IMG/VR virus record: IMGVR_UViG_3300048851_000132
Span: 1 to 51,522 of that record
From: a virus
Taxonomy: Duplodnaviria > Caudoviricetes
Length of the DNA stretch: 51,522 nucleotides
Reading direction: 5' to 3' (one strand)
The first letter of the stretch is position 1. Each line of letters begins with the position of its first letter. Both the position numbers and the translations under genes were made by a program. A model generated the notes under the pieces. The model did not search any database and was not told the DNA's origin. It saw nothing but the letters and a program-made list of their open reading frames with translations. Of the stretch, positions 7,750 through 48,877 are shown piece by piece.

Positions 7750-8172
7750 ATGTCGCGCTGGGTGGTGCTCACTAAGCCGGGCTTAAAAGCCGGGAAGGGC
7801 GGGGAGGAGCCGCCGAGTGGCCCGTTGGAACGCATCGCGAGATATGTTCCGGCTGAGATTATCTCTCCGTACACGATGCTCTTCGCTGCATTCGTCTCTC
7901 TTGTTAAAGGCCGAATCACTGCCGAGTACTGGCCGCTTGTGCCGGCGGCTCTTATGTTTCTCTTCTTTCTTGCCACAATCGCATACGTGTGGCGTGAGAC
8001 GAGCGGAGCCGTGCGGCGCGTCCACCTTATCGTGTCGCCCTTGGCTTTTCTTGCCTGGGCCTACCCAATATCCAGCGCCCTCCTCGGAGATTGGTTCGAT
8101 GGGATTGTTGCCTTGTCTGCCCAGGCTATCGTGATTTGCCTCTCGATCGCCTTGTGGCGTGAGCCAGGGTGA
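7750..8172 (+). CDS. Multi-pass membrane protein (ERIARYVPAE motif), accessory
   Basis: 140 aa with 3-4 hydrophobic helices, a good RBS and lower GC. Antisense to the tail operon. Confidence 0.8.
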   Translation: MSRWVVLTKPGLKAGKGGEEPPSGPLERIARYVPAEIISPYTMLFAAFVSLVKGRITAEYWPLVPAALMFLFFLATIAYVWRETSGAVRRVHLIVSPLAFLAWAYPISSALLGDWFDGIVALSAQAIVICLSIALWREPG

Positions 8173-27098: not shown

Positions 27099-27457
27099 CA
27101 GCGGACCTCCAGCATGGTGTAGGCCTTGCGACCTTCCTTGCCGGGCATATGCTTCCCGACCATGGAGCGCGTGATCTTCGGCCCCACCGTCTCCGGCAGC
27201 TCGGCCACGTCGGTGCGCGTCAGCACATGCGTGCCGGCATAGGCGACGGACGCATCGCCCATCGCCTGCAGCAGCACCGGCTTGATCTCCTTGAGCCGCT
27301 TCTCCAGCCGGTTCTTCTCTGGCGCGGCCTTGGCGTACTCGGCGGCCAGCTTCACCAGCGCCGGGTCGGTGATGACCGGATAGTTGGTGCCGGCGGGCGC
27401 CGCCGGCGCCGGATCCGCCGCGGCCTTCTTGGCGCGCGGCTTCGGGGTGGTGACCAT
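27098..27457 (-). CDS. Hypothetical phage protein
   Basis: 119 aa, coupled to the recombinase gene. Confidence 0.7.
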   Translation of the reverse strand: MVTTPKPRAKKAAADPAPAAPAGTNYPVITDPALVKLAAEYAKAAPEKNRLEKRLKEIKPVLLQAMGDASVAYAGTHVLTRTDVAELPETVGPKITRSMVGKHMPGKEGRKAYTMLEVR

Positions 27458-28173
27458 CAGGCGGAAGTCCTCTTCAGGATGCGGGCCACCTGCACGGGGT
27501 GCCAGACGTCACCGCCGGCAGGTGTGCGGATGCCGCGCGCGGTCAGCGCCTCGGCGATCTGCGAGTGGTTGGCGCAGCCGGCCTTCCGCGCCGCCAGGAT
27601 GGCGGGCAGCACATCGCGGGCGTGCTGCGCGGCCTTGGCGACGCGGATCTCGGTGGCCTGGCTGACGGCAGCGCCGTCGCCGGCGCGGAGCTTCGGGTTG
27701 CCGAGCTTCACGCCGCGCGCCTTGGCCGCCTGCAAGGCAGCCCTGGTGCGCGCCGAGATCATCTCGCGCTCATGCTCGGCGACGGCGGCCAGGATGTGGA
27801 TGGTGAGGCGGCTGGCATGCGGGTTGTCGCAAGCGACGAACTCGATGCCGGCTTCCATCAGGTTGGAGACGAAGGCGACGTTGCGGGCCAGCCGATCCAG
27901 CTTGGCGATCACCAGCGTGGCGCGGCGCGACCGGCAGGCGGCGATGGCCGCGAGGATCTGGGGGCGGTCATTCTTCTTGCCGCTCTCCACCTCCCGGAAC
28001 ACGTCCAGGATGCGACCGCCGGCGGCGCGCACATGGCGCTCAACCGCCTCTTGCTGGGCCTCTAATCCGAGGCCGCTGGCGCCCTGCTTGTCGGTGGAGA
28101 CGCGGTAGTAGGCGACGAACCCCGGAACGCCGTCCCCGCCCCCCAGCCTCTTCAGCGGGGTTTTGCGGGCCAT
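27457..28173 (-). CDS. Serine recombinase (resolvase/invertase family) 1
   Basis: YYRVSTDKQG.SGLGLEAQ, E.ESG, KLDRLAR, ERE.IS.RT..AL..AKARG..LGNP motifs. Confidence 0.95.
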   Translation of the reverse strand: MARKTPLKRLGGGDGVPGFVAYYRVSTDKQGASGLGLEAQQEAVERHVRAAGGRILDVFREVESGKKNDRPQILAAIAACRSRRATLVIAKLDRLARNVAFVSNLMEAGIEFVACDNPHASRLTIHILAAVAEHEREMISARTRAALQAAKARGVKLGNPKLRAGDGAAVSQATEIRVAKAAQHARDVLPAILAARKAGCANHSQIAEALTARGIRTPAGGDVWHPVQVARILKRTSA

Positions 28174-36708: not shown

Positions 36709-37308
36709 ATGAAGATCGGATACATGCGGGAGAGCGCGGCGGGCCCGTCATTGGCAGAGCAGCAGGCCCTGCTGCGCCTGGCCGGCATCGAGGACTTTAG
36801 CAGGCACGCCCCGGTCTATACCGACCGCCGCCGCAAGGGTCCGACCGCCACGACACCAGAGCGCGATGCCATGGTGCGCATCCTGCGGCCGGGTGATGTG
36901 GTGATCATCGCGAAGGCCACGCGCCTCGGCACCAGCCGGGCCGACGTGCTGAAGGCCATGGCCGCCATCACGGCGCGTGGCGCGGCGATCCATGACGCCG
37001 AGGTCGGGCAGGATGTGCAGCTGCACCCCGACGCCGTGCCGGCCATCGCCTTTGCCGATCGGGCGGAGAGTGGCGCCAAGCGGGAACAGGCCGCGAGGAT
37101 GCATGTCCGGAAGGTGGCGCTGGGCGTGACCGGCGGCCGGCCGGAGCGGCTGCAGGGCAACACGAAGGCGGCCGCCGCGGCGGCCTGGGCAGATCTCACC
37201 AAGACCGTCCAGCAGGTGGCGGTCGAGTTCAACGTAGGGGCACGGACACTCTATCGGCTGTTCGGGCCGAAGGGCACGCCCCGCTTTGGCAAGAAGGCTC
37301 AACCATGA
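36709..37308 (+). CDS. Serine recombinase 2 (Pin/Hin-like with C-terminal HTH)
   Basis: MKIGYMRES, LRPGD.V.I....RLG and GGRP hinge, plus a C-terminal HTH (VA.EFNVG.RTLYR). Confidence 0.9.
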   Translation: MKIGYMRESAAGPSLAEQQALLRLAGIEDFSRHAPVYTDRRRKGPTATTPERDAMVRILRPGDVVIIAKATRLGTSRADVLKAMAAITARGAAIHDAEVGQDVQLHPDAVPAIAFADRAESGAKREQAARMHVRKVALGVTGGRPERLQGNTKAAAAAAWADLTKTVQQVAVEFNVGARTLYRLFGPKGTPRFGKKAQP

Positions 37309-39579: not shown

Positions 39580-39658
39580 CAAACGACCCCGGATGCACAT
39601 ATGGATGGATATACATTTGTATAGATGCACATCCATCTATCTATCCTTTACTGGACCA
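39580..39658. repeat. parS/parC-like centromere downstream of the par operon
   Basis: AT-rich 4-bp periodic repeats (GATGCACATATGGATGGATATACAT...) abutting the stop of the RHH gene. Confidence 0.75.
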
Positions 39659-39950
39659 GTTTCTTGTTCTTTGCCAACCACATATCCAACGCCTCTGAGA
39701 CGATTGCTTGCTTTTGCCGACCGGTGCGGAAGCGGTGGAGAGCCAAGGCCTCGGCCTGTTCAGCCGAGAGCTTGAAGTTCATCGAGCCAGGCCGAGACAC
39801 GGATGGAGTCAGCGCCGGGGCTGGAGCCGGCGGCGGCTCGACCGCCAGAGGCATGGGCGGAGGGTTCTCCGCCCGCTCGATGGGCGGCGGCGCATCCAGG
39901 GGCCCCTTGGCGAAGATAGCGTCGAACTTGCTGCCAGGCCGCTTGGTCAC
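39648..39950 (-). CDS. ParG-like ribbon-helix-helix centromere-binding protein
   Basis: Pro-rich flexible N-terminus and C-terminal MNFKLS.E...AL...KQAIV.EALD.WL RHH pattern. Coupled to parA. Confidence 0.8.
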   Translation of the reverse strand: MTKRPGSKFDAIFAKGPLDAPPPIERAENPPPMPLAVEPPPAPAPALTPSVSRPGSMNFKLSAEQAEALALHRFRTGRQKQAIVSEALDMWLAKNKKLVQ

Positions 39951-40543
39951 GCGGTGATCTCCTTGCCGACTGCTTCATAGGCCTCCCAGGCTCGGGCCGA
40001 GCCCTTCTCTTTTGGCACGCCACGAACGGAGACGCCGTTGCTGGCTGCGTGCTCGAAAACCTTCAGCCGCGGCACCTGCCCGGTGAACACCGGGATGCCT
40101 TGGGAGGTGAGGACCTGGCGCAGCTGCTCACCATCCGTCTCTGGCGACGGCGGAACCTTGACGAGCAGCACACGGTGCTTGCCCGGAGCCAACTCCTTGG
40201 CCGCGCGCAGAGTGTCGACGAGCACATCTGTTTCCAGGGTGGCCGGGACGGTGGGAATCACCAGCAGGTCGCAGCCCTGAGCCAGGGCCTCGAAGTCCGC
40301 CGATCCCGGACGGGCTTCAGTGTCGACGACGACGTGTGTGAAGGAGCGGGCCTTGTAGGCGCCAGCCTCGACCGGGACGACCTCGAAAGCGAAGCCACCG
40401 CGCTTGGCCCAGGCCGTGCTGGAGCGGTTCGGGTCACCATCGATCAGCAGCGTCGGAGCGAGCGTCTGCAGGTACTCTGCCAAGTGCACCGCTGTCGTCG
40501 TTTTGCCTACGCCGCCTTTGTAACTCGCGACCGTGATGTACAT
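39947..40543 (-). CDS. parA: ParA partition ATPase (type Ib)
   Basis: KGGVGKTT deviant Walker A, LLIDGDPN and VVVDT. Short, with no N-terminal HTH. Confidence 0.95.
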   Translation of the reverse strand: MYITVASYKGGVGKTTTAVHLAEYLQTLAPTLLIDGDPNRSSTAWAKRGGFAFEVVPVEAGAYKARSFTHVVVDTEARPGSADFEALAQGCDLLVIPTVPATLETDVLVDTLRAAKELAPGKHRVLLVKVPPSPETDGEQLRQVLTSQGIPVFTGQVPRLKVFEHAASNGVSVRGVPKEKGSARAWEAYEAVGKEITA

Positions 40544-40612
40544 CTGTGCGGACATCCATCCATATGTGCAGATGTACATTTACACATATGGATGTACATC
40601 TGTACATCGATA
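40535..40612. repeat. parS/operator array upstream of parA
   Basis: GATGTACAT x3 and related 4-bp periodic units, same family as 39580-39658. Confidence 0.8.
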
Positions 40613-40910
40613 TTTAGGTGAGCTGATCGCGATAAAGCCCTGTTTCCGATTGGTTGCGTGGTGGGCAAGAGTCCTGCATTGTGCCGCGATGATCTTGGAG
40701 AGCCGCTCAATCCTGAGCAAAGCATAGCCCTAGAACGACGAAACCCCGCGCTTGCCGGCGCGGGGCTTGTCGGACCCGCCGGAGCGGATCGGAAACCAAT
40801 GACGTTGGTACTCCCGATCCTACATCGCCGAATCTGCCGCGCAAGAGGATTTTGCGTGAACGGGTGAGGCTTGCCGGCTGGTCCTCGGGCCAACCGAAGG
40901 AGGATCGGCT

Positions 40911-41459
40911 GTGCCGATCTCACGATCACGCCCGGCGCGTGCCGGGTCTGTGCGCGTTGCCGCCTGGCAGCGCCAGCGCCTCGGCGATGCCGACCGCCGC
41001 CGCATCATGGAAGCCGCGCGCCGCCTGGAGCGGCGCAGCCACCAGCCGGGGATGCATGGCGGCGCCCTGCGCCGCACCGGCATCCTGGTGCTCTGGACGC
41101 TGCTCTATCGTGGGCCGTCGCGGCATGGGGTCTGCGATCCCAGCCTCGGCCAGCTGGCCGCCTGGTCTGGCTGCGCCCGCTCCACCGTGCAGCTCGCCCT
41201 GCAGCGCATCGAGGCCGCTGGCATCATGGGCCACGTCCGCCGTGGCCTGACGGTCGCCGGCCGCTGGTGCCAGTGGACCTCGGCCTATCTCTTCGCCAGC
41301 CCGGCGCAATGGGCCGTAAGCGATACCGAGGCTCGGTCAGCCGAAGTCTCTCAGGAGAAAAAGAAGCTTAGGGAAGAAGGCGGGGGAGGGGAGGGGAGCG
41401 CCCTGCCAGCGACCGAGCACGCCGCGCTGGCGGCGAAATGGGGAGTGGCGATGGTCTAA
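40911..41459 (+). CDS. Putative plasmid replication initiator (HTH type)
   Basis: G.L...G..VL..LL...G.CDPS...LA..SGC.RSTV..AL.R.E.AG and Q.TSAY.F resemble HTH Reps of small alphaproteobacterial plasmids. Divergent from parA. Confidence 0.7.
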   Translation: MPISRSRPARAGSVRVAAWQRQRLGDADRRRIMEAARRLERRSHQPGMHGGALRRTGILVLWTLLYRGPSRHGVCDPSLGQLAAWSGCARSTVQLALQRIEAAGIMGHVRRGLTVAGRWCQWTSAYLFASPAQWAVSDTEARSAEVSQEKKKLREEGGGGEGSALPATEHAALAAKWGVAMV

Positions 41460-41485
41460 GGCCGGCGCGGCCTCCGCGGCAGCCC

Positions 41486-41731
41486 TCAGACAACCGGCGG
41501 CGGCAGGTCGCCGCGGTCCAACCAGTGGTCGATGATGGGGAACCATGCCTCGTGGTGGCCCAGGTAGGTGCCGTCAAGCGGGTGGCCCGGCATCACCAGG
41601 CGGTTGGTCTTGCCCCAGGAGCGCACGGTGGCGCCACGGTAGCACCAGATCTTCCAGGGGCCGTCCTCCGCCAGCTGGTGCGGCACGTGGGGTGGCGGCA
41701 GTTCGGGAGAGGATCGGGTCATGCCACCCAT
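41486..41731 (-). CDS. Hypothetical protein
   Basis: 81-aa ORF with protein-like composition. Confidence 0.55.
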   Translation of the reverse strand: MGGMTRSSPELPPPHVPHQLAEDGPWKIWCYRGATVRSWGKTNRLVMPGHPLDGTYLGHHEAWFPIIDHWLDRGDLPPPVV

Positions 41732-41762
41732 GTAGCACGCGCCAGGACGGCACCCCGCTGAT

Positions 41763-41819
41763 GATTGCGGCAGCCCAGCGAGGGCTCGACGGGGGACACG
41801 ATAAGCGGGCGTTATCGTG
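41763..41819 (+). repeat. Bipartite boundary repeat A (GATTGCGGCA-N39-TTATCGTG; core CACGATAA-N7-TTATCGTG)
   Basis: Perfect 8-bp inverted repeat with a 7-bp spacer. The motif recurs at 43060, 44660 and 46732. Confidence 0.8.
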
Positions 41820-41860
41820 CTTGAGAAGCAGATCCGAAGGGTGGCTTTGCTAAAGCGCCC

Positions 41861-42988
41861 ATGGCGGATAGCCTGAGTTCAGGAACGACGGATACCCTAT
41901 TTGGGAGGCAGCCACTGCAACCGATCACCAAAGGGCGCTCAATCCGGCTCTACCTCGTTGATGGCACTCCAACCGGGTTGATCACCGCAGAGATTGTGAA
42001 CTGGACAGGGCACGTGATTCTAGCGCCAAGGTCGCGCTTGGCAGACCTGCTCCAGCGCAAAGAGCCCCTACGAACAGGAGTATACTTCCTATTCGGGCCA
42101 GACCCGAACGATCCAGCACAGACGCTTCTCTATATCGGTGAAAGTGAGAATGTCGGGAAGCGTTTAACCCAGCACAATAAAGACAATGAGAAATCATTTT
42201 GGGAACGAGTATGCATCGTTACGAGTAAAGATCAAAACATTACGAAAGGGCATGGAAAATATCTTGAAAGCCGGCTGATCGAAATTGCCAAACGAGCTGG
42301 TAGAGCCAAAATTACCAATGGAACATCCCCTGAATATGGATGGTTACCGGAAGCCGATCTGGCGGATATGGAGTTCTTTCTCGAACAGGTTAAAGTTATT
42401 CTTCCTGTTCTAGGTCTTGATTTTCTGAGAGACACCGTTTTTATTAATGTTACTGCTAAGCCACAGGTGGCGAATGCTGAGGCAGCCAAAGTATCACTGG
42501 AGAGCCTTGGCTTGGTGCCACCTGCAACTACCGCGCGGCAACTAACTACAGTTCGAACGGAGCTAGGAGAAAGTCCCGTTTCCTTTCCTAAGGAAATGCC
42601 GCCAACCGTTGACCAAGATAAGCCTGTCTTCGAGATCAGGGACCTGAAATCTGACCTAGTCGCCTACGCTCAAGAGATTGCAGGCGAGATGGTGGTCCTC
42701 TCCGGCTCAAAGGCACGCATTGAAGAGGGTACTTCATTTACAACCTCACAGAAGCAACTGCGGAACAGCCTACGACAAAAGGGCATCTTGGCTGATGACC
42801 CAAACAGCTCGAACCACTACATCTTCACCGCCGACGTACCCTTCAGCAGCCCAAGTCAGGCCTCTGTCATCATCCTCGGACGATCAGACAATGGCCGCCT
42901 GTCCTGGCGAACCATGAACGGGGGAATGACCTACCAGAAGTGGCAGGAGGATCAGATCAGCAAGCTTCCTTCCAGTACTTCAGAGTAG
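41861..42988 (+). CDS. GIY-YIG nuclease fused to DUF4357 (RAMA-like) domain
   Basis: GVYFL...YIGESENV..RL.QH, YLE..LI and C-terminal VL.GS.A..F..D..F.SPS.A...I.GRS.NG..W. Confidence 0.9.
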   Translation: MADSLSSGTTDTLFGRQPLQPITKGRSIRLYLVDGTPTGLITAEIVNWTGHVILAPRSRLADLLQRKEPLRTGVYFLFGPDPNDPAQTLLYIGESENVGKRLTQHNKDNEKSFWERVCIVTSKDQNITKGHGKYLESRLIEIAKRAGRAKITNGTSPEYGWLPEADLADMEFFLEQVKVILPVLGLDFLRDTVFINVTAKPQVANAEAAKVSLESLGLVPPATTARQLTTVRTELGESPVSFPKEMPPTVDQDKPVFEIRDLKSDLVAYAQEIAGEMVVLSGSKARIEEGTSFTTSQKQLRNSLRQKGILADDPNSSNHYIFTADVPFSSPSQASVIILGRSDNGRLSWRTMNGGMTYQKWQEDQISKLPSSTSE

Positions 42989-43059
42989 CCGAGGCTTATG
43001 TATGGAACGTCGGTGCATGGACCGTAGGCCTGCTCAGGATCGAACCCACCGTTAAGTCG

Positions 43060-43116
43060 GATTGCGGCAACTGCCCGCCAGCAGTCCCATGCGACACTGG
43101 TTGAAGGATTATCGTG
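43060..43116 (+). repeat. Bipartite boundary repeat B
   Basis: GATTGCGGCA at 43060 and TTATCGTG at 43109, the same 49-nt offset as repeat A. Confidence 0.8.
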
Positions 43117-43263
43117 CTGCTGCGCCTATGGAAGCTGCAGTCGGGCTGCCCGTGTCGGGATCTGCGTGGCAGAATGTCACCGCCGGGACGAGGTCCAGAA
43201 ATGGTTCTGACGCCGGCGCTTGGGCCTCTGCTATGCAGCACAGCCCCTTTCTGGAGAGAATGC

Positions 43264-43638
43264 ATGTTCACCCACGTCATGATCGGCAGCAACGACCTGG
43301 AGCGGGCTCGGGACTTCTATGACGCCACTTTCGCCGCGTTGGGAGGCCAGCCCGGCGACATGGATGCCAGAGGTCGGCTGATCTATACCCACGCGGGTGG
43401 TCGGCTGATGATCACGAAGCCGATCAATGGCAATCCGGCGACCGCAGCCAATGGCGGGACGATTGGTCTCGCCGCTGCGAGCCGAGAGCATGTTCTCGCG
43501 TGGCACGAGGCCGGCACCGCGCATGGTGGTACCGCGATCGAAAGCCCGCCTGCGGAGCGCCCAAACGGGGCCTTTGTCGCTTACCTGCGCGATCCAGACG
43601 GAAACAAGCTCACCGCGCGAACTCAGGCGACGAAGTAA
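43264..43638 (+). CDS. VOC/glyoxalase family protein
   Basis: F.HV.IGSNDLE.A..FYDA, NG..IG..A and Y.RDPDGNK motifs. Confidence 0.95.
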   Translation: MFTHVMIGSNDLERARDFYDATFAALGGQPGDMDARGRLIYTHAGGRLMITKPINGNPATAANGGTIGLAAASREHVLAWHEAGTAHGGTAIESPPAERPNGAFVAYLRDPDGNKLTARTQATK

Positions 43639-43713
43639 GCGTCGGCCGCGGTATCAGTCCGGCTTGGGTCGACAGCAGTCAGGGCCGGCAGCACGTATCG
43701 GCTGTCAAAGAAA

Positions 43714-43743
43714 CAGCCTGGCAGGGGCGAGCCTGCCAGGCTG
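43714..43743. terminator. Intrinsic terminator-like hairpin
   Basis: CAGCCTGGCAGG-6 nt-CCTGCCAGGCTG perfect 12-bp stem. T-rich tail on the minus strand. Confidence 0.6.
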
Positions 43744-43959
43744 ATCTGGTTCTGCTTGCTCCCTTCCACGCTGGCTGTCTGGCCAGCGCCGGTCCGATCA
43801 GGGCCTGTCACCAGTTAGGGCGTTCACCACGCCGCCGCAGTGCGCATGGTGTAGCAGGCCCTGCTTAACGCCCGGTAAAGGCAGCGCCGCTTTTCTGCGC
43901 GACGCAGGATGGCACGCCCCCGTCTCGGTAGCTGGCTGGCCACCCGCTATGCTCCGCCC

Positions 43960-44649
43960 ATGCTGATGCTCTTCCGCCGCCTGCTGCTGGCCGCCCTGCT
44001 GCTCACCACCGCGCCCGCCCTCGCCGCCGATCTTCTCGGACAGGTGGTGGGCATCCAGGATGGCGACACCCTGACCCTGCTAACGCCGAAGCACCGGCAG
44101 GTGCGGGTACGCCTCTACGGCATTGATGCCCCGGAGAGCCGACAGCCCTACGGCACCCGGGCGCAGCAGGAGCTCTCGGCATTGGCCTTCCGCCAGCAGG
44201 TCCGCGTGACGGTGGAAGACACCGACCAGTACGGCCGCACCGTCGGCCGGGACTGGGCCGGATCGCTCGACGTCAATGCCGAGTTGATCCGCCGTGGCGC
44301 TGCCTGGGTCTATCGCCAGTACAACCGTGATCCGGCGCTACTGCCGCTTGAGGCGGAGGCCCGTCAGGCCAGGCGCGGCCTCTGGGCTATGCCGGCCAGC
44401 GAGCAGGTGCCGCCCTGGGTCTGGCGGCGGAACGGCGGCCGGGCGACCGCGACCCCGCAGCCATCAGCAGCGGGAAGGGCAGGGGCTACGGCGCCATCCG
44501 GTAGTACCGCCGGCCTAAGTTGCGGCAGCAAGCGCTCCTGCACCCAGATGAGCAGCTGCGCCGAGGCGCAGTTCTACTTCCGCCAATGCGGCCTGAGCCG
44601 GCTGGATGGCGACCGTGATGGGGTGCCGTGCGAGCGGCTGTGCCGCTGA
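43960..44649 (+). CDS. Secreted thermonuclease (SNase) with Excalibur domain
   Basis: Signal peptide, DGDT, RLYGIDAPE, D.YGR and A...RGLW motifs, with C-terminal LDGDRDGVPCE. Confidence 0.95.
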   Translation: MLMLFRRLLLAALLLTTAPALAADLLGQVVGIQDGDTLTLLTPKHRQVRVRLYGIDAPESRQPYGTRAQQELSALAFRQQVRVTVEDTDQYGRTVGRDWAGSLDVNAELIRRGAAWVYRQYNRDPALLPLEAEARQARRGLWAMPASEQVPPWVWRRNGGRATATPQPSAAGRAGATAPSGSTAGLSCGSKRSCTQMSSCAEAQFYFRQCGLSRLDGDRDGVPCERLCR

Positions 44650-44659
44650 CAGGATGCCG

Positions 44660-44716
44660 GATTGCGGCAACTTCTGCTGGGTCCATCCCTCAGCACGCGA
44701 GTCAAAGCTTATCGTG
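44660..44716 (+). repeat. Bipartite boundary repeat C
   Basis: GATTGCGGCA at 44660 and TTATCGTG at 44709 (49-nt offset). Core CACGCGAG-N7-TTATCGTG. Confidence 0.8.
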
Positions 44717-44983
44717 TATTGGTTGCCTTCGACGGGGTGAGGAGATTGGCCATCCCCGGACTTGATCGATGGTCAGGGGCATTAAAGTGGTCCTTGGGTT
44801 GCGCGGGCGCGTAGACATAGGTCAGCCGGATACCGTTCGCATCCGCAATGCTGTAGCCGCCGCGGGTTCGGACTGCTGCTCAGGAGCCGAGCACGATCGG
44901 CACAATTGGAACATAATAAGAACTTCGCGTACGGTAAAGTTGTGGAGTTGCCAGAATGCATGCACGCATGCGATCATGCGGTC

Positions 44984-45190
44984 ATGAATCGCAGGCAGCC
45001 TGTCGCGACTGATGGTCTTCTCTTCGCTGATCCGAAGGAGCCTCTTCAGGTGCGCATACCGTCCGGCATCAAGCGCCGTTTCAAGGCTGCCGCCGCGATG
45101 CGCGGGATTGAGCCGAACGCGCTGTTCGTCGAGGTTTGGGAACACTATGAGCGCACCAGAGGCGACGACGCCGTGCGAGAGGGTCCATAG
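44984..45190 (+). CDS. Small RHH-like regulator upstream of the methyltransferase
   Basis: PLQVRIP..IKRRFK..A..RG....LF RHH pattern. CATG repeats just upstream. Confidence 0.7.
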   Translation: MNRRQPVATDGLLFADPKEPLQVRIPSGIKRRFKAAAAMRGIEPNALFVEVWEHYERTRGDDAVREGP

Positions 45191-45850
45191 ATGAGCGCCA
45201 AAGAAGCTCCCGACGCTGGTAAGGACCTGCTGTCCAGCGTTAGCAACAAGACCTTTAAGACCATACTTGCAGACCCGCCGTGGCAGTTCATCAACCGCAC
45301 CGGAAAGGTCGCACCGGAGCACCGCAGGCTGGCGCGGTATGGCACAATGGACCTTCCGGCAATCTGTGCCCTTCCTGTAGAGAGGATCGCGGCGTCTACG
45401 GCTCACCTCTATCTGTGGGTGCCGAACGCGCTTCTGCCCGACGGTCTGCAGGTCATGAAGGCGTGGGGCTTCACCTACAAGGCGAACATCGTTTGGCGGA
45501 AAATCCGCAAGGATGGCGGTAGCGATGGGCGTGGCGTGGGCTTCTATTTCCGCAACGTCACGGAGATTCTGCTCTTCGGCACGCGCGGAAAGAATGCTCG
45601 GACGCTTCAGCGCGGACGGACGCAGGTGAATTACCTCGAAACCCGCAAGCGCGAACACAGCCGGAAACCGGACGAGATTTACGAGATCATCGAGGCATGC
45701 AGCCCAGGCCCGCGGATCGAGCTGTTCGCTCGTGGCGTGCTGCCCGGCTGGACATCATGGGGCAATCAGGCCGACGAGAGCTATGAGCCGACATGGGACA
45801 CCTATGCCCATAACTCGGCATCCCAGCGCCGGCTGATAGCGGCGGAGTAG
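45191..45850 (+). CDS. MT-A70 family N6-adenine methyltransferase
   Basis: ILADPPW, HLYLW, WGF.Y, EHSRKP and ELFAR motifs. Confidence 0.95.
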   Translation: MSAKEAPDAGKDLLSSVSNKTFKTILADPPWQFINRTGKVAPEHRRLARYGTMDLPAICALPVERIAASTAHLYLWVPNALLPDGLQVMKAWGFTYKANIVWRKIRKDGGSDGRGVGFYFRNVTEILLFGTRGKNARTLQRGRTQVNYLETRKREHSRKPDEIYEIIEACSPGPRIELFARGVLPGWTSWGNQADESYEPTWDTYAHNSASQRRLIAAE

Positions 45851-46618
45851 TTATTCTTCGCTCTCGTCGTCGCCCTCGTCGTCGCTGCCAGCGTCGAGGG
45901 GGACGGCTCCCGCTGTTTTCTTGCCTTTGGCCTTCCGCTTGGCATCGCGCTCAGCCTTAGCGGCGAACGCAGCAGCCAAGGCATCAGGACCATCATCGAC
46001 ATAGAGCTTGGGCGAGATCGCAAAAGTCAGTACCGGACAACCGCCACCCCCTCCGCCCTCAAGACGTGGCCATAGGCGGTTGTGATGGGTCGTAGTCGCG
46101 CCGTAACTCTTACCCTTCCCCAAACTATTGAAAATGCCCTGCAGGTCCCAAGATCGGGTTATGATGACGCCAACGTCTATAGTCCGAAGTTCAAACAAAA
46201 GACGAAAATTGTTAAGGTCGCGATCAAAAAATGGGTCTTTGTTATTCCATTCAAGTTCAAGAGCTACCCGACCCTTAAAGCAATCAACGAGATGTGTGGG
46301 ACTGTTATACTTATATTTATCGGTGAATGCGGTCTTTTTCTTACGCTCAGACCCTTCTTTGATCGAGATCGTTGTTTGAAATCCCTTCTCTTCCCAGCCG
46401 CGCGAATCGAACGCGGCGTTGATGCCTTTCGAGATGGGCGAGAGACCTTCTCCGGCGGTCAGAACCTCCGATTTGAGAAGGCGGAAATTGCGTAGGACTT
46501 CAACGATATCTGTCCATTCCGACGGGCATGCAGTCTGCAGTATGCCCGTTGCATTGCGCCATTCTTTGACCTGGTAGAGGTCGCGAAGATCTTCAGGGAT
46601 CAGGTGTTCAGTCGCCAT
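45851..46618 (-). CDS. BglII/BstYI-family type II restriction endonuclease
   Basis: H.VD..K.RVALE.EWNNKDPF.DRDL..F PD-(D/E)xK-like motif. Convergent with the MTase. Confidence 0.9.
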   Translation of the reverse strand: MATEHLIPEDLRDLYQVKEWRNATGILQTACPSEWTDIVEVLRNFRLLKSEVLTAGEGLSPISKGINAAFDSRGWEEKGFQTTISIKEGSERKKKTAFTDKYKYNSPTHLVDCFKGRVALELEWNNKDPFFDRDLNNFRLLFELRTIDVGVIITRSWDLQGIFNSLGKGKSYGATTTHHNRLWPRLEGGGGGGCPVLTFAISPKLYVDDGPDALAAAFAAKAERDAKRKAKGKKTAGAVPLDAGSDDEGDDESEE

Positions 46619-46731
46619 GATGGCAGAGTGCATCCCTGGCGCGGATTTTGCTACCCTGAGTCGTAATGAGCGAGTTTAAAAAGGCGAGGTGCAGCGGCGC
46701 TTCAGTCAGAAGCATGTCCGCTTCGTCTCAC

Positions 46732-46791
46732 CATTGCGGATCGCCAGGCTGAACGCTCTGAACGAAGTCATCATAACCAAGCCTAATCGTG
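46732..46791 (+). repeat. Bipartite boundary repeat D (degenerate)
   Basis: CATTGCGGAT at 46732. Core CATCATAA-N7-TAATCGTG at 46769-46791 (offset 52). Confidence 0.6.
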
Positions 46792-46930
46792 CTTAACTGT
46801 GTTAAGCAACCTACCATTCAGCCTACGCACCCGACCAATGGCAACCTGCATAAGCCTACAGATTCACCATACTAAACGACTTACGTTAAGTCGCGTTGAT
46901 TGATGGCGGAGCCTGTGCTATCTTGAGCGA

Positions 46931-47215
46931 ATGGAGCTCGAATTCGAGGATCATCGTGCAGCACTGATTGAAACCGATCGGGCTGCTGACACTCGCCTGC
47001 CTGTTGCAGTCATTCAGACTGCTCGGCACCGGCTGACCCTGATTCGAGCAGCCCCAGATGGGCGAGCACTCCGGAATTGGAAAAGCCTTGGCTTCAGCAT
47101 GGCGCCTGCCGTGGGAGCAGCTGTGAGGATTAATGAACGCTGGAGCATGCGCCTGCGCCTTGATGACTTTGATAGTCCGAAAAAGGTAACAGTCGTGAGT
47201 CTAGTAGAACATTGA
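46931..47215 (+). CDS. HigB-like (RelE-fold) toxin
   Basis: MELEF.D, RL..I.AA...L...KSL and VRIN..W pattern. Precedes the HigA-like gene. Confidence 0.75.
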   Translation: MELEFEDHRAALIETDRAADTRLPVAVIQTARHRLTLIRAAPDGRALRNWKSLGFSMAPAVGAAVRINERWSMRLRLDDFDSPKKVTVVSLVEH

Positions 47216-47234
47216 ACGCCAGCGGAGAGAATAG

Positions 47235-48368
47235 ATGACGATTATGCAGAATGTTAGCGTTGATCCGCCAGGTGTTTACATCAAAGCTGAGATAGATGCG
47301 CGAGGGTGGACACAGCGAGACTTAGCTTTCATCCTTGGGCAAACTGAGCAACAGCTTAGCCCGCTTTTGTCTGGGAAGAGGGCCATTACTCCAGACATGG
47401 CGCGGTTGCTCGGGGACGCTTTCGATATGCCAGCGCAGTTTTTTGCAAACCTGCAAAGTCTCTACGACTTGGCAAATGCGAAGCAGCCCGACCCAGCAGT
47501 GCGTACTCGTGCTATACTACAGGCTACCTATCCAGTTCGCGATATGATACGCCGCGGCTGGATCGAGGACGGTGAAGCATCACTTCTGCAACTTCAAATC
47601 GACCGATTTTTCGAAGTTGCGAACGATGACGTTTCAGGAAAAAGAGTGTCGTTCGCTGCCAAGAGAGCCAGCTATGATGAGACGCCTCCTCATCAGCTAG
47701 CTTGGGTATTCCGTGTTCGCCAATTGGCAAGGCAAGTTGATGTGGCGCCGTTTTTTGCCGAAAAATTGCGTTCTTCTCTGGTGCGTCTTAAGCATCTTAT
47801 GGTTGACGTAGAAGCTGTTCAAGAAGTTCCAGTAATATTGGCTGAGGCAGGCGTTAGGTTCGTACTCGTTGAAACACTGCCTAATGCGAAGATCGATGGG
47901 GTTTGCACTTGGCTTGGAGAGAACTCGCCAGTTATAGGAATGTCAACTCTATACGACAGAGTTGATAATTTCTGGTTTGTTCTTCGTCATGAGATTGAGC
48001 ATGTCCTAAGAGGACATGGGAAGTCATCTGCTGTCGGCATCATTGATCACCTTGTCGGAGATGCTGCTTCTGAAGACCAGAATGTGGATGAAGAAGAGAG
48101 AGTTGCAAATTTTGCAGCAGCAGATTTTTGCGTTCCTAAGCAGAAGATGGACTCATTCTATGCCAGAAAGCACCCTTATTTTTCAGAAAGAGATGTGATT
48201 GGCTTTGCATCTCTCATGCAGATCCACCCAGGCATAGCGGTTGGGCAGCTTCAACGCAGATTAGGCCGCTATGATTACCTGCGGAAATACCAAGTCCCTA
48301 TCAGGAGGCATGTGTTGGAACATGCTTTGGTAGATGGCTGGGGGCAAGTGGCAAACTCTGATCTCTAA
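47235..48368 (+). CDS. HigA-like HTH fused to ImmA/IrrE metallopeptidase
   Basis: PPG.YIK.E...RGWTQ.DLA..GKR.IT..MA..L HTH, followed by IDG and DNFWF.LRHEIEH (HExxH). Confidence 0.92.
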   Translation: MTIMQNVSVDPPGVYIKAEIDARGWTQRDLAFILGQTEQQLSPLLSGKRAITPDMARLLGDAFDMPAQFFANLQSLYDLANAKQPDPAVRTRAILQATYPVRDMIRRGWIEDGEASLLQLQIDRFFEVANDDVSGKRVSFAAKRASYDETPPHQLAWVFRVRQLARQVDVAPFFAEKLRSSLVRLKHLMVDVEAVQEVPVILAEAGVRFVLVETLPNAKIDGVCTWLGENSPVIGMSTLYDRVDNFWFVLRHEIEHVLRGHGKSSAVGIIDHLVGDAASEDQNVDEEERVANFAAADFCVPKQKMDSFYARKHPYFSERDVIGFASLMQIHPGIAVGQLQRRLGRYDYLRKYQVPIRRHVLEHALVDGWGQVANSDL

Positions 48369-48388
48369 CACCGTTCCAAGAGAGAAAA

Positions 48389-48877
48389 ATGGCAAAATAT
48401 TCTGAACAGATGCAGCAGATTTTTGCCCGATACACGGCCGAAGTTGATGCGTCACCAGTTTCGCTAGACCAAGTTGCTGCATGGGCTATTCGGGAAGGTT
48501 TGTGGAAGCCTTCACCTCGAGATGTGGCAAAAATCTGCAGAGCAGATCTGGCAGATAGTTTGCGTCAGGAGAAGCGCACTGATTCCAAAGGACGCTCTTA
48601 TCGCGCTAAGCATTCTGTTCGATCCAAGGAAAATGGTTTGCCTTTGATGTTGTGGGCCGACATCGATAGTGCTCCCCGCTCCTTCATGGTGAAATCTTTC
48701 GCGCAACGCAGGAAGGCGATTGTTAACGATTGCTTCCAGATCAAGCAGGATGTCGACCACTTTAATGACGAACGTAGCGCGGATCAGCCAATTCAACTCG
48801 TTCTGGATTTCACGGATGACGTGGCGGAGTTGGAAGCTGTTAAGCGCAATCCTGAAGATGACGAAGACGCCGCGTAG
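48389..48877 (+). CDS. Hypothetical protein, third gene of the HigB-HigA/IrrE operon
   Basis: 162 aa, low GC like the operon, starting 20 bp downstream. Confidence 0.8.
   Translation: MAKYSEQMQQIFARYTAEVDASPVSLDQVAAWAIREGLWKPSPRDVAKICRADLADSLRQEKRTDSKGRSYRAKHSVRSKENGLPLMLWADIDSAPRSFMVKSFAQRRKAIVNDCFQIKQDVDHFNDERSADQPIQLVLDFTDDVAELEAVKRNPEDDEDAA

Follow-up and report, generated by a model that had tools for sequence, protein, structure and literature searches.

A bipartite repeat punctuates the cargo region of a viral record

The window analyzed here is the whole stretch of IMG/VR virus record IMGVR_UViG_3300048851_000132, 51,522 bases in length, which is listed as linear with a CheckV completeness of 100 and has a G+C content of 66.7%. 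Downstream of a small replication-protein (Rep) gene, the window carries a series of cargo modules that are separated by a short bipartite repeat. From comparisons of the sequence with that of its relatives, we conclude that this repeat probably delimits mobile gene cassettes and serves as a double-stranded site for their site-specific recombination, and that it would represent a new integron-like cassette system.

The repeat pairs a 10-mer, GATTGCGGCA, with a downstream arm, TTATCGTG. The first-pass annotation had placed it at 41763, 43060 and 44660 with a fixed offset of 49 nucleotides (nt), and this turned out to be exact: GATTGCGGCA occurs at the three positions, all on the + strand, and GATTGCGGCA-N39-TTATCGTG occurs exactly three times in the 51.5-kb record, at the same positions and 49 nt start to start. 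When the gap was relaxed to N36-42, the joint pattern gave 3 forward matches, 0 reverse matches and 0 matches in a backwards control. The arm TTATCGTG by itself was found 5 times in the window, where 0.32 occurrences would be expected; none of 100 shuffles gave as many. All three exact copies are intergenic, as had been claimed, given a start of the VOC gene at 43264. Copy 1 has a perfect core, CACGATAA-N7-TTATCGTG, while copies 2 and 3 retain the right arm only, which is also how the cores had first been described. The sites in the window are as follows.

41763..41820, + strand: site 1, the backbone ('attI-like') copy (cmsearch 51.8 bits), with Box A GATTGCGGCAGC at 41763-41774, left arm CACGATAA at 41797-41804, 7-nt spacer at 41805-41811 and right arm TTATCGTGC at 41812-41820
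43037..43117, + strand: site 2 (cmsearch 46.2 bits), left arm degenerate, with Box 0 GGATCGAACCC at 43037-43047, Box A at 43060-43071 and right arm TTATCGTGC at 43109-43117
43663..43704, + strand: a vestigial, internally collapsed fifth site between the VOC gene and the nuclease gene
44660..44717, + strand: site 3 (cmsearch 52 bits), with Box A at 44660-44671, GCACG at 44693-44697 and right arm TTATCGTGT at 44709-44717
46732..46792, + strand: possible degenerate site 4, CATTGCGGAT ... CATCATAA-N7-TAATCGTGC

A degenerate copy had also been proposed at 46732. The sequence and the offset are as described, with CATTGCGGAT at 46732, TAATCGTG at 46784 (offset 52) and 77% agreement with copy 1 over 22 nt; the similarity is not significant (nhmmer E=11, and no cmsearch match at E<=1). 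It is plausible that the 46732 copy is a degenerate member of the repeat. The collapsed site at 43663-43704 was identified by reading the sequence and had no model match in cmsearch. It consists of a Box 0-like CTTGGGTCGAC, followed by GGCAG fused straight to CACG and TATCGGCTG, and the homology of the nuclease cassette with the related locus L165 starts a few bases past it.

Elsewhere in the window, in the tail-gene region (7971-8035), an intergenic TTATCGTGT stands 47 nt after an inverted Box A-like GATTGTGGCA (- strand). The orientation of this pair is unlike that of the motif, and the pair was not reported by the sequence-only model of the repeat, R1.

The repeat belongs to a clade-restricted family with a palindromic core

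The family consensus spans about 60-100 nt and consists of an optional GGGTCGAACC box, about 15 nt, GATTGCGGCAAC, about 21 variable nt, GCACG(ATAA), 7-8 nt and TTATCGTGC. The core is a 9-7-9 dyad, GCACGATAA-N7-TTATCGTGC, and some copies consist of the palindrome alone. The distance from Box A to the arm is fixed at 38-40 nt. Among full palindromes, the spacer is 7 nt in copy 1 and in most others, 6 nt in L205, and 8 nt in L128 and L164. The core has the architecture of simple tyrosine-recombinase sites, which is two inverted arms of 9-13 nt around a spacer of 6-8 nt.

An exact-pattern scan of one genome per species listed at least 120 matches, which is roughly the chance level by estimate; among the matches listed, five Roseomonas-group loci are real relatives with further features in common. 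The same scan of viral contigs gave 9 chance-like matches, and a strict pattern had no match on those contigs. With R1, we found 19, 8, 8 and 1 copies in four Roseomonas-group genomes. The motif is present in 11 of the 23 genomes of the Roseomonas-group genus, in only 3 of 151 genomes of a family-wide sample, and in 5 of the 9 IMG/VR relatives that have the same Rep. On small contigs with ParA and Rep, and on phage-plasmid relatives, the copies form arrays in which all have the same orientation and lie 0.5-3.5 kb apart. Thus, a scan of relatives and other plasmids, which the first-pass annotation had proposed, recovered the motif as same-orientation arrays.

Two unusual forms of the core were seen. 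Locus L174 (G171:C11, ~100823-100889) has a two-sided site directly downstream of a Rep pseudogene, in which a GCACGCTAA-type palindrome carries an inverted Box A on both flanks at equal distance; the one-sided cassette sites may derive from such a symmetric 'parent' form. Hybrid cores in L202 (11802-11824) and L045 (1486-1511) combine a CCCGATAA-type left arm with the right arm TTATCGTG. They might be exchange products between arm classes, or they might have decayed left arms.

Homology between related elements ends at the right arm

To place the cassette borders, we consider where homology between related loci stops. The window shares Rep, an open reading frame (ORF) of 81 amino acids (aa) and site 1 with L197 and L128, and the homology ends at 41820/41821. 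With L171 and L165, which share the nuclease gene and site 3, the homology ends at 44716. Across 40 loci, 13 of 591 clustered ends of blastn high-scoring segment pairs were located no more than 5 nt from the final base of the right arm, where 0.69 would be expected (binomial 6e-13), and these ends cover 13 of 50 sites. The pattern is one-sided, as 9 pairs have the upstream flank and the motif in common and homology then stops. L142 and L148, which are two contigs of one genome, are 99.5% identical as far as the arm and unrelated beyond it. The cargo swaps expected at the core by the first-pass annotation do map there, to the spacer/right-arm end.

Single units were also found to recur between sites. 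In L166, the VOC gene is the only gene between two sites, and the nuclease gene recurs together with its downstream site in L165 and L171. On two contigs of genome G160, a unit of 485 nt is homologous from the TTATCGT of the left site to the TTATCGTGC of the right site, and its flanks are unrelated. The homology breaks and the 485-nt unit suggest that a cassette would extend from one right arm to the next, its 3' end comprising Box 0, Box A, the variable stretch and the left arm. The arrays have the corresponding form, with cassettes in the same orientation and a site at the 3' end of each cassette.

A family of Xer-like recombinases is linked to the palindrome

We identified as a candidate enzyme a family of simple Xer-like tyrosine recombinases of about 345 aa, in which only a SAM_1 domain and a catalytic domain were found. 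The candidate scored 40-54 bits against the XerC/XerD models, with cut-offs near 330, and 42-49 bits against the integron-integrase/XerA model, with a cut-off of 220. It is present in 19 of the 23 genus genomes and in 45 of 201 genomes of the family sample. Of 19 recombinase loci in the genus, 6 have a 9-7-9 palindrome with inner TAA-N7-TTA at 130-930 nt upstream of the gene. Family-wide, a palindrome lies upstream in 8 of 30 loci (five within 104 nt) and downstream in 0 of 30; two loci are common to the genus and family sets. The spacer is 7 nt in all 6 and all 8 of these sites. At the six genus loci, transcription of the recombinase gene leads away from the site, and a Box A-like GGTTGCC (GGATTGCC in one), read by eye, is located 19-20 nt from the arm on the gene side. 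Two of the six have a FitA-RHH/PIN pair between the site and the recombinase.

The arms also co-vary with the recombinase. The arm types CACGATAA, CACGCTAA, CCCGATAA, CGCGATAA and CGTGATAA require 4 changes on the recombinase tree, which is the minimum, while shuffled arm types required 7.2 on average and 0 of 200 shuffles were as low as 4. The CACGCTAA/TTAGCGTG variant is a symmetric change in both arms and is common to both copies in G159. In the genus, all 11 motif-positive genomes have a recombinase class of at least 72% identity, compared with 3 of the 12 motif-negative ones (Fisher 3e-4; relatedness uncorrected). Taken together, the same site architecture is found upstream of a tyrosine recombinase elsewhere, as had been anticipated, and the arms follow the recombinase phylogeny. 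The recurrence, the breakpoints and the recombinase linkage support the earlier idea of a cassette system with a tyrosine-recombinase-type core and an enzyme acting in trans. We give the Xer-like family an even chance of being that enzyme, judging from these associations. Other tyrosine recombinases of G001-G003 were tried as candidates and rejected, as they had no consistent link to the motif.

Several observations weigh against a cassette system of this kind. Searches in six frames with PF00589 found no tyrosine recombinase in the window and none in 5 relatives; since the window has none, the enzyme would have to act in trans. A site is absent from the available flanks at 13 of 19 genus and 22 of 30 family recombinase loci, the recombinase copies in the motif-richest genomes, G001 and G002, have no site nearby, and in G169 the arms of the plasmid-type copy differ from the site beside the genome's own recombinase. 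Both the co-occurrence of recombinase and motif and the association of arms with the tree are confounded by shared descent. The left arms are degenerate in most array copies and the spacers vary within one array, so exchange would be slowed. The crossover is placed only within the spacer and right arm, about 16 nt, because the arm itself is conserved, and the BLAST ends at the right arm reflect this conservation in part. Three pairs, which are paralogous loci of one genome, share the motif and the downstream flank rather than the upstream one, starting from near Box A. No site was seen at the right border of the window cargo (48.9 kb). No recombination product was seen, whether as an excised circle, an empty site in a sister strain or a read-level joint, and two soil runs that contain the stretch, as assembled contigs only, had no clean joint at the motifs.

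Operator, replication-site and passive-repeat explanations

The first-pass annotation had itself offered a shared regulatory operator as the alternative. In such an operator or promoter, a dimeric regulator would bind the dyad and a second factor would bind Box A to control the flanking modules, and the swaps would be apparent only, the motif being the sole conserved intergenic sequence. The motif is indeed intergenic and dyad-symmetric with a fixed spacing. About two-thirds of the neighbor genes are co-oriented with it (16 of 24 downstream, by crude ORF calls), and single chromosomal copies are found where promoters diverge, such as ahead of a GntR/FCD gene. On the other hand, 8 of the 24 downstream neighbors are convergent, such as the AAA_28 gene of L128, which ends 36 nt past the arm. 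Sigma-70-like hexamer pairs were found at none of the three copies, and the 3 promoter-like sites in 41400-47300 are all off the motif; in the alignments of 11 and 39 copies, no hexamer is conserved 17 nt ahead of TATCGT. RecA-type exchange would need longer stretches than the conserved boxes (12, 5 and 9 nt), yet the breakpoints are sharp. The site beside the recombinase could be explained by autoregulation where it lies upstream of a vapBC-int operon, through either the RHH antitoxin or the integrase, but the site is also beside the recombinase in loci without vapBC (L227; L259, L263 and L268-L270, at 1-104 nt). We consider an operator unlikely.

The repeat may instead be a replication or maintenance site, that is, a Rep-binding origin, a copy-control site or a multimer-resolution site that was duplicated with neighboring DNA. 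In 8 of 11 Rep loci, a single full palindrome follows Rep at a distance of 21-1268 nt; one of these loci has a Rep only 68% identical to that of the window, and the palindrome in L219 adjoins a Rep-like ORF 38% identical to that of the window. In the Rep-bearing loci (n=8), all sites are co-oriented with Rep (19 of 19 model matches on the Rep strand), with one L198 copy located upstream of Rep. Of the motif-positive genomes, 10 of 11 have Rep (E<=1e-40), compared with 5 of 12 motif-negative ones (Fisher 0.03). Such a site would leave the cassettes with an arm on both sides unexplained, and array copies 0.5-3.5 kb apart between unrelated genes are unlike iterons. The palindrome is present on RepA_C-type plasmids as well (L165 and L168), and it also stands beside the recombinase on chromosome-sized contigs (e.g. 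116 kb and 78 kb) in which the Rep search was negative. A role in multimer resolution is compatible with a cassette recombination site and is not a true rival to it. We regard a replication or maintenance site as very unlikely.

A third possibility is a selfish or passive intergenic repeat, either MITE/REP/RIME-like or the end of an HUH or serine-recombinase element, with no link to the Xer-like enzyme. The repeat is dispersed, clade-restricted, intergenic and a mosaic of boxes, as such an element would be. It had been noted earlier that no recombinase is encoded here; this holds for tyrosine recombinases, but two serine recombinases are present in the window, and one array in L169 contains a serine-recombinase fragment. 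Serine recombinases have a central 2-bp crossover, to which the odd-length 9-7-9 core is ill-suited. No motif-like half-sites were found near the resolvases of the window, the serine-recombinase genes do not consistently accompany arrays, and the resolvase gene of the window is missing from the flanks of L198 and L202 although the arrays remain there. Single-strand DNA folds of 28 copies showed no conserved fold beyond the short dyad (z-scores -4.5 to +1.5, most -2 to 0), with the local GCACG...CGTGC stem alone recurring. Rfam had no family at the motif, and its sole matches, weak and spurious (microRNA), were at a parS-like palindrome at 40.5 kb. Copy numbers are low, at 1-19 per genome, and a passive repeat leaves the recombinase adjacency and the arm co-variation unexplained. 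We regard a passive repeat as very unlikely.

Comparison with known cassette and repeat systems

The arrays resemble integrons in several respects. The cassettes mostly hold one to three genes and follow one another head to tail, and their sites all point the same way; the site is at the 3' end of the cassette, and exchange appears to occur at its far (right) end. There is a primary site in the backbone and a simple Xer-related tyrosine recombinase, which is transcribed away from the site where the two are adjacent. The cargo is also alike, with GNAT, VOC/glyoxalase, toxin-antitoxin and restriction-modification genes. Unlike in integrons, RYYYAAC/GTTRRRY cores were not found: the ends here are GATTGCGGCAAC (left) and TTATCGTGC (right), which are not complementary, and the base preceding TTAT is not a conserved G in the alignments of 11 and 39 copies. 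In place of a whole-site hairpin of variable length with extrahelical bases, the site has a fixed-length double-strand dyad and a one-sided arm. An IntI-type integrase beside the array was not found either; the arrays adjoin Rep/ParA without a recombinase gene. The cassette system would work like an integron, and it differs from attC and IntI in every criterion of sequence and structure.

The other close comparison is with the dif modules of Acinetobacter plasmids, whose features, including the alternating orientation of sites in C and D modules, are taken from PMC13141974. These modules are alike in that short recombinase sites bound plasmid cargo that is shuffled among plasmids with a small Rep and a small ORF, the enzyme is supplied by the host, and toxin-antitoxin and defense-type genes are carried. 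A pdif site is 11-6-11 with distinct XerC and XerD arms like those of the host dif, whereas the arms here are palindromic around a spacer of 7 (rarely 8) nt and come with a fixed accessory arm; pdif orientation alternates, whereas 19 of 19 sites point one way in the 8 Rep loci. On three replicons of R. marmotae, the candidate dif sites have TTATGTAAAAT or TTATGTAATAT at their end and 6-nt spacers, in contrast to the right arm TTATCGTGC of the motif. Because of the different R. marmotae arms and the 6-nt spacer, Xer acting at dif-type sites is not the model, and it was rejected together with a dif/pdif-type (Xer) site, to which the first-pass annotation had likened the core: the host dif arms differ, the spacer is 7 and not 6, and the orientation does not alternate. 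A canonical Xer-like site was found in only one related locus (L198).

Two further systems have to be considered. Cis-mobilizable elements (CIMEs), which take part with integrative elements in tandem accretion at one att site, have no integrase of their own; direct repeats of an att site flank them, they accumulate at a single target, and the tyrosine integrase of a related element mobilizes them in trans. In integrative elements, the integrase gene adjoins its own att site. The cassettes proposed here would be alike in these respects. Unlike CIMEs, the units described here are single-gene-sized, their target is plasmids and phage-plasmids rather than a tRNA gene, and the recombinase has no arm-binding domain (only SAM_1 and the catalytic domain were found). 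The promoter-early stem-loop (PeSL) repeats of T4-like phages are promoters and stem-loops that flank mobile ORFs, and they are thought to act via homologous or copy-choice exchange. In both cases, a hyperplastic cargo region in a phage genome is interrupted by short, conserved repeats between genes. Unlike PeSLs, the present repeat lacks a promoter consensus, has the dyad as its only conserved stem-loop, and comes with a candidate site-specific enzyme. A limited literature search turned up no printed description of the repeat or of the cassette system; text matches to the motif sequence were primers and guides only.

Proposed mechanism and its meaning

We propose that the site would consist of a core, in which a 7-nt spacer separates two inverted arms of 9 nt (GCACGATAA / TTATCGTGC), and of an accessory arm, GATTGCGGCAAC, which is present on one side only, about 21 nt left of the core and often with GGGTCGAACC ahead of it. 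The inverted arms would be bound by an Xer-like tyrosine recombinase of about 345 aa, supplied by host replicons and not by this element, and strands would be exchanged at the boundary of the spacer and the right arm, which is our best estimate of the crossover point. At its 3' end, a cassette would bring along the accessory arm, the variable stretch and the left arm, comparable to the attC of an integron cassette, and it may be excised as a circle. Cassettes would then pile up head to tail at the backbone site beside Rep/ParA of plasmids and phage-plasmids. The window would have taken in PDC-S14, VOC, the nuclease, the restriction-modification system and the PD-Lambda-2-like system in this way. 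Whether the full scheme is correct appears evenly balanced to us: an undescribed integron-like system of the Acetobacteraceae, in which an Xer-like family of host replicons acts in trans to load cassettes bounded by 9-7-9 sites beside the replication module of plasmids and phage-plasmids, which gain PDC-S14, restriction-modification and PD-Lambda-2 by capture.

Few cassette systems use site-specific recombination. Integrons and the Acinetobacter dif modules are the main ones, and they have shaped thinking on the spread of accessory and resistance genes. If the scheme is true, this would be a third, mechanistically distinct system, with a double-strand dyad site, an accessory arm and its own family of Xer-like enzymes, and cassette capture would have evolved repeatedly. 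It would also explain in concrete terms how defense systems are gathered by phage-plasmids and small plasmids in soil and host-associated Acetobacteraceae, and mobile cargo in metagenomes could be recognized by a simple sequence signature. The pairs of sites and enzymes, in which the arms co-vary, may represent a naturally occurring set of orthogonal recombinases.

Cargo modules and backbone of the window

The backbone beside the array (39947-41731) and the modules between the sites are as follows.

39947-40579, - strand: ParA
40911-41459, + strand: small HTH_36/lambda-O-like 'Rep'
41486-41731, - strand: conserved 81-aa ORF
41861..42988, + strand: cassette 1, GIY-YIG/DUF4357 protein, PADLOC candidate defense family PDC-S14 (E 2.4e-115)
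43264..43638, + strand: cassette 2, VOC/glyoxalase-fold protein (PF00903)
43909..44649, + strand: cassette 3, thermonuclease (SNase) with Excalibur domain
44906..46633, mixed strands: cassette 4, type II restriction-modification module
44906-45190, + strand: 94-aa ORF of cassette 4
45191-45850, + strand: MT-A70 methyltransferase of cassette 4
45851-46633, - strand: BglII-like endonuclease of cassette 4
46931..48877, + strand: last module, comprising a 94-aa ORF, a 377-aa HTH_3 + M78 protein and a 162-aa ORF

The G+C content steps between 46% and 71% at the sites; cassette 1 has about 48% against 70% in the backbone, and the backbone level (about 70%) is reached again past 48.9 kb. The methyltransferase of cassette 4 has an MTase_II match (E 9.6e-88), and the 94-aa ORF beside it has no family match. 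Most of the module labels of the first-pass annotation were recovered (GIY-YIG/DUF4357, VOC, SNase with Excalibur, MT-A70, BglII, and HTH_3 with M78), while 'RHH' and 'HigB' for the two 94-aa ORFs were not. The HigB-HigA label of the last module gave way to a PD-Lambda-2_B match (E 1.2e-42). The module has three ORFs, like the three-gene PD-Lambda-2, and component B is the only one matched, the 94-aa and 162-aa ORFs having no match; it looks like PD-Lambda-2 rather than HigBA. The window cargo is defense-heavy, as had been stated, with PDC-S14, the MT-A70/BglII restriction-modification pair and the PD-Lambda-2_B homologue. The emphasis on defense does not extend to the whole repeat family, in which the cargo is varied and includes GNAT, PEP-CTERM, cytidylyltransferase, SLT, VOC, nuclease and hydrolase genes. 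At the start of the nuclease cassette, a 12-bp GC-rich hairpin at 43714-43743 is kept in L165 and has a terminator score on the minus strand.

The window encodes Mu/P2-type baseplate proteins and, besides the small Rep, a second, larger HTH_36+DnaA_N protein. We read the window as a tailed phage-plasmid, because it combines baseplate genes, ParA and Rep proteins. The Rep/81-aa ORF backbone is kept in L128 and L197 as far as site 1, and the same Rep occurs in 9 IMG/VR records at 68-90% identity, of which 3 have terminal repeats. The closest named sequences to the window are Roseomonas plasmids, which match over Rep. In megablast searches, the cargo region had no match to phage records and only gene-sized matches to plasmids, at Rep and VOC. 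Of the two serine recombinases, that at 27457-28173 (-) has a strong resolvase match (E 4.4e-31), and that at 36709-37308 (+) matches a DNA-invertase PHROG, with its DNA 91-94% conserved in three relatives. The target sites of the two were not found.

Inverted repeats crowd positions 40533-40609 just upstream of parA, with 31-nt arms at 40545-40606, and a perfect 17-nt inverted copy lies at 39594-39610, on the far side of the operon of parA and a 100-aa ORF. These repeats, which bracket the partition genes, look like parS-type centromere sites.

In the two soil runs, depth was summed over contigs and is indicative only: the Rep region (40255-41607) had about 20 times, and the VOC-nuclease region (43267-44585) about 4-5 times, the depth of the neighboring cargo. 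This suggests that the Rep and VOC-nuclease pieces sit in many other elements of the same communities. One low-depth contig of run X1 joins 44645 back to 41628 ('goes back 3018'), from the end of the nuclease gene to the region of the 81-aa ORF; this joint is near, but not at, sites 3 and 1. Contigs from RNA libraries cover parts of the restriction-modification and last modules at low depth, and they show neither transcription nor a start site.

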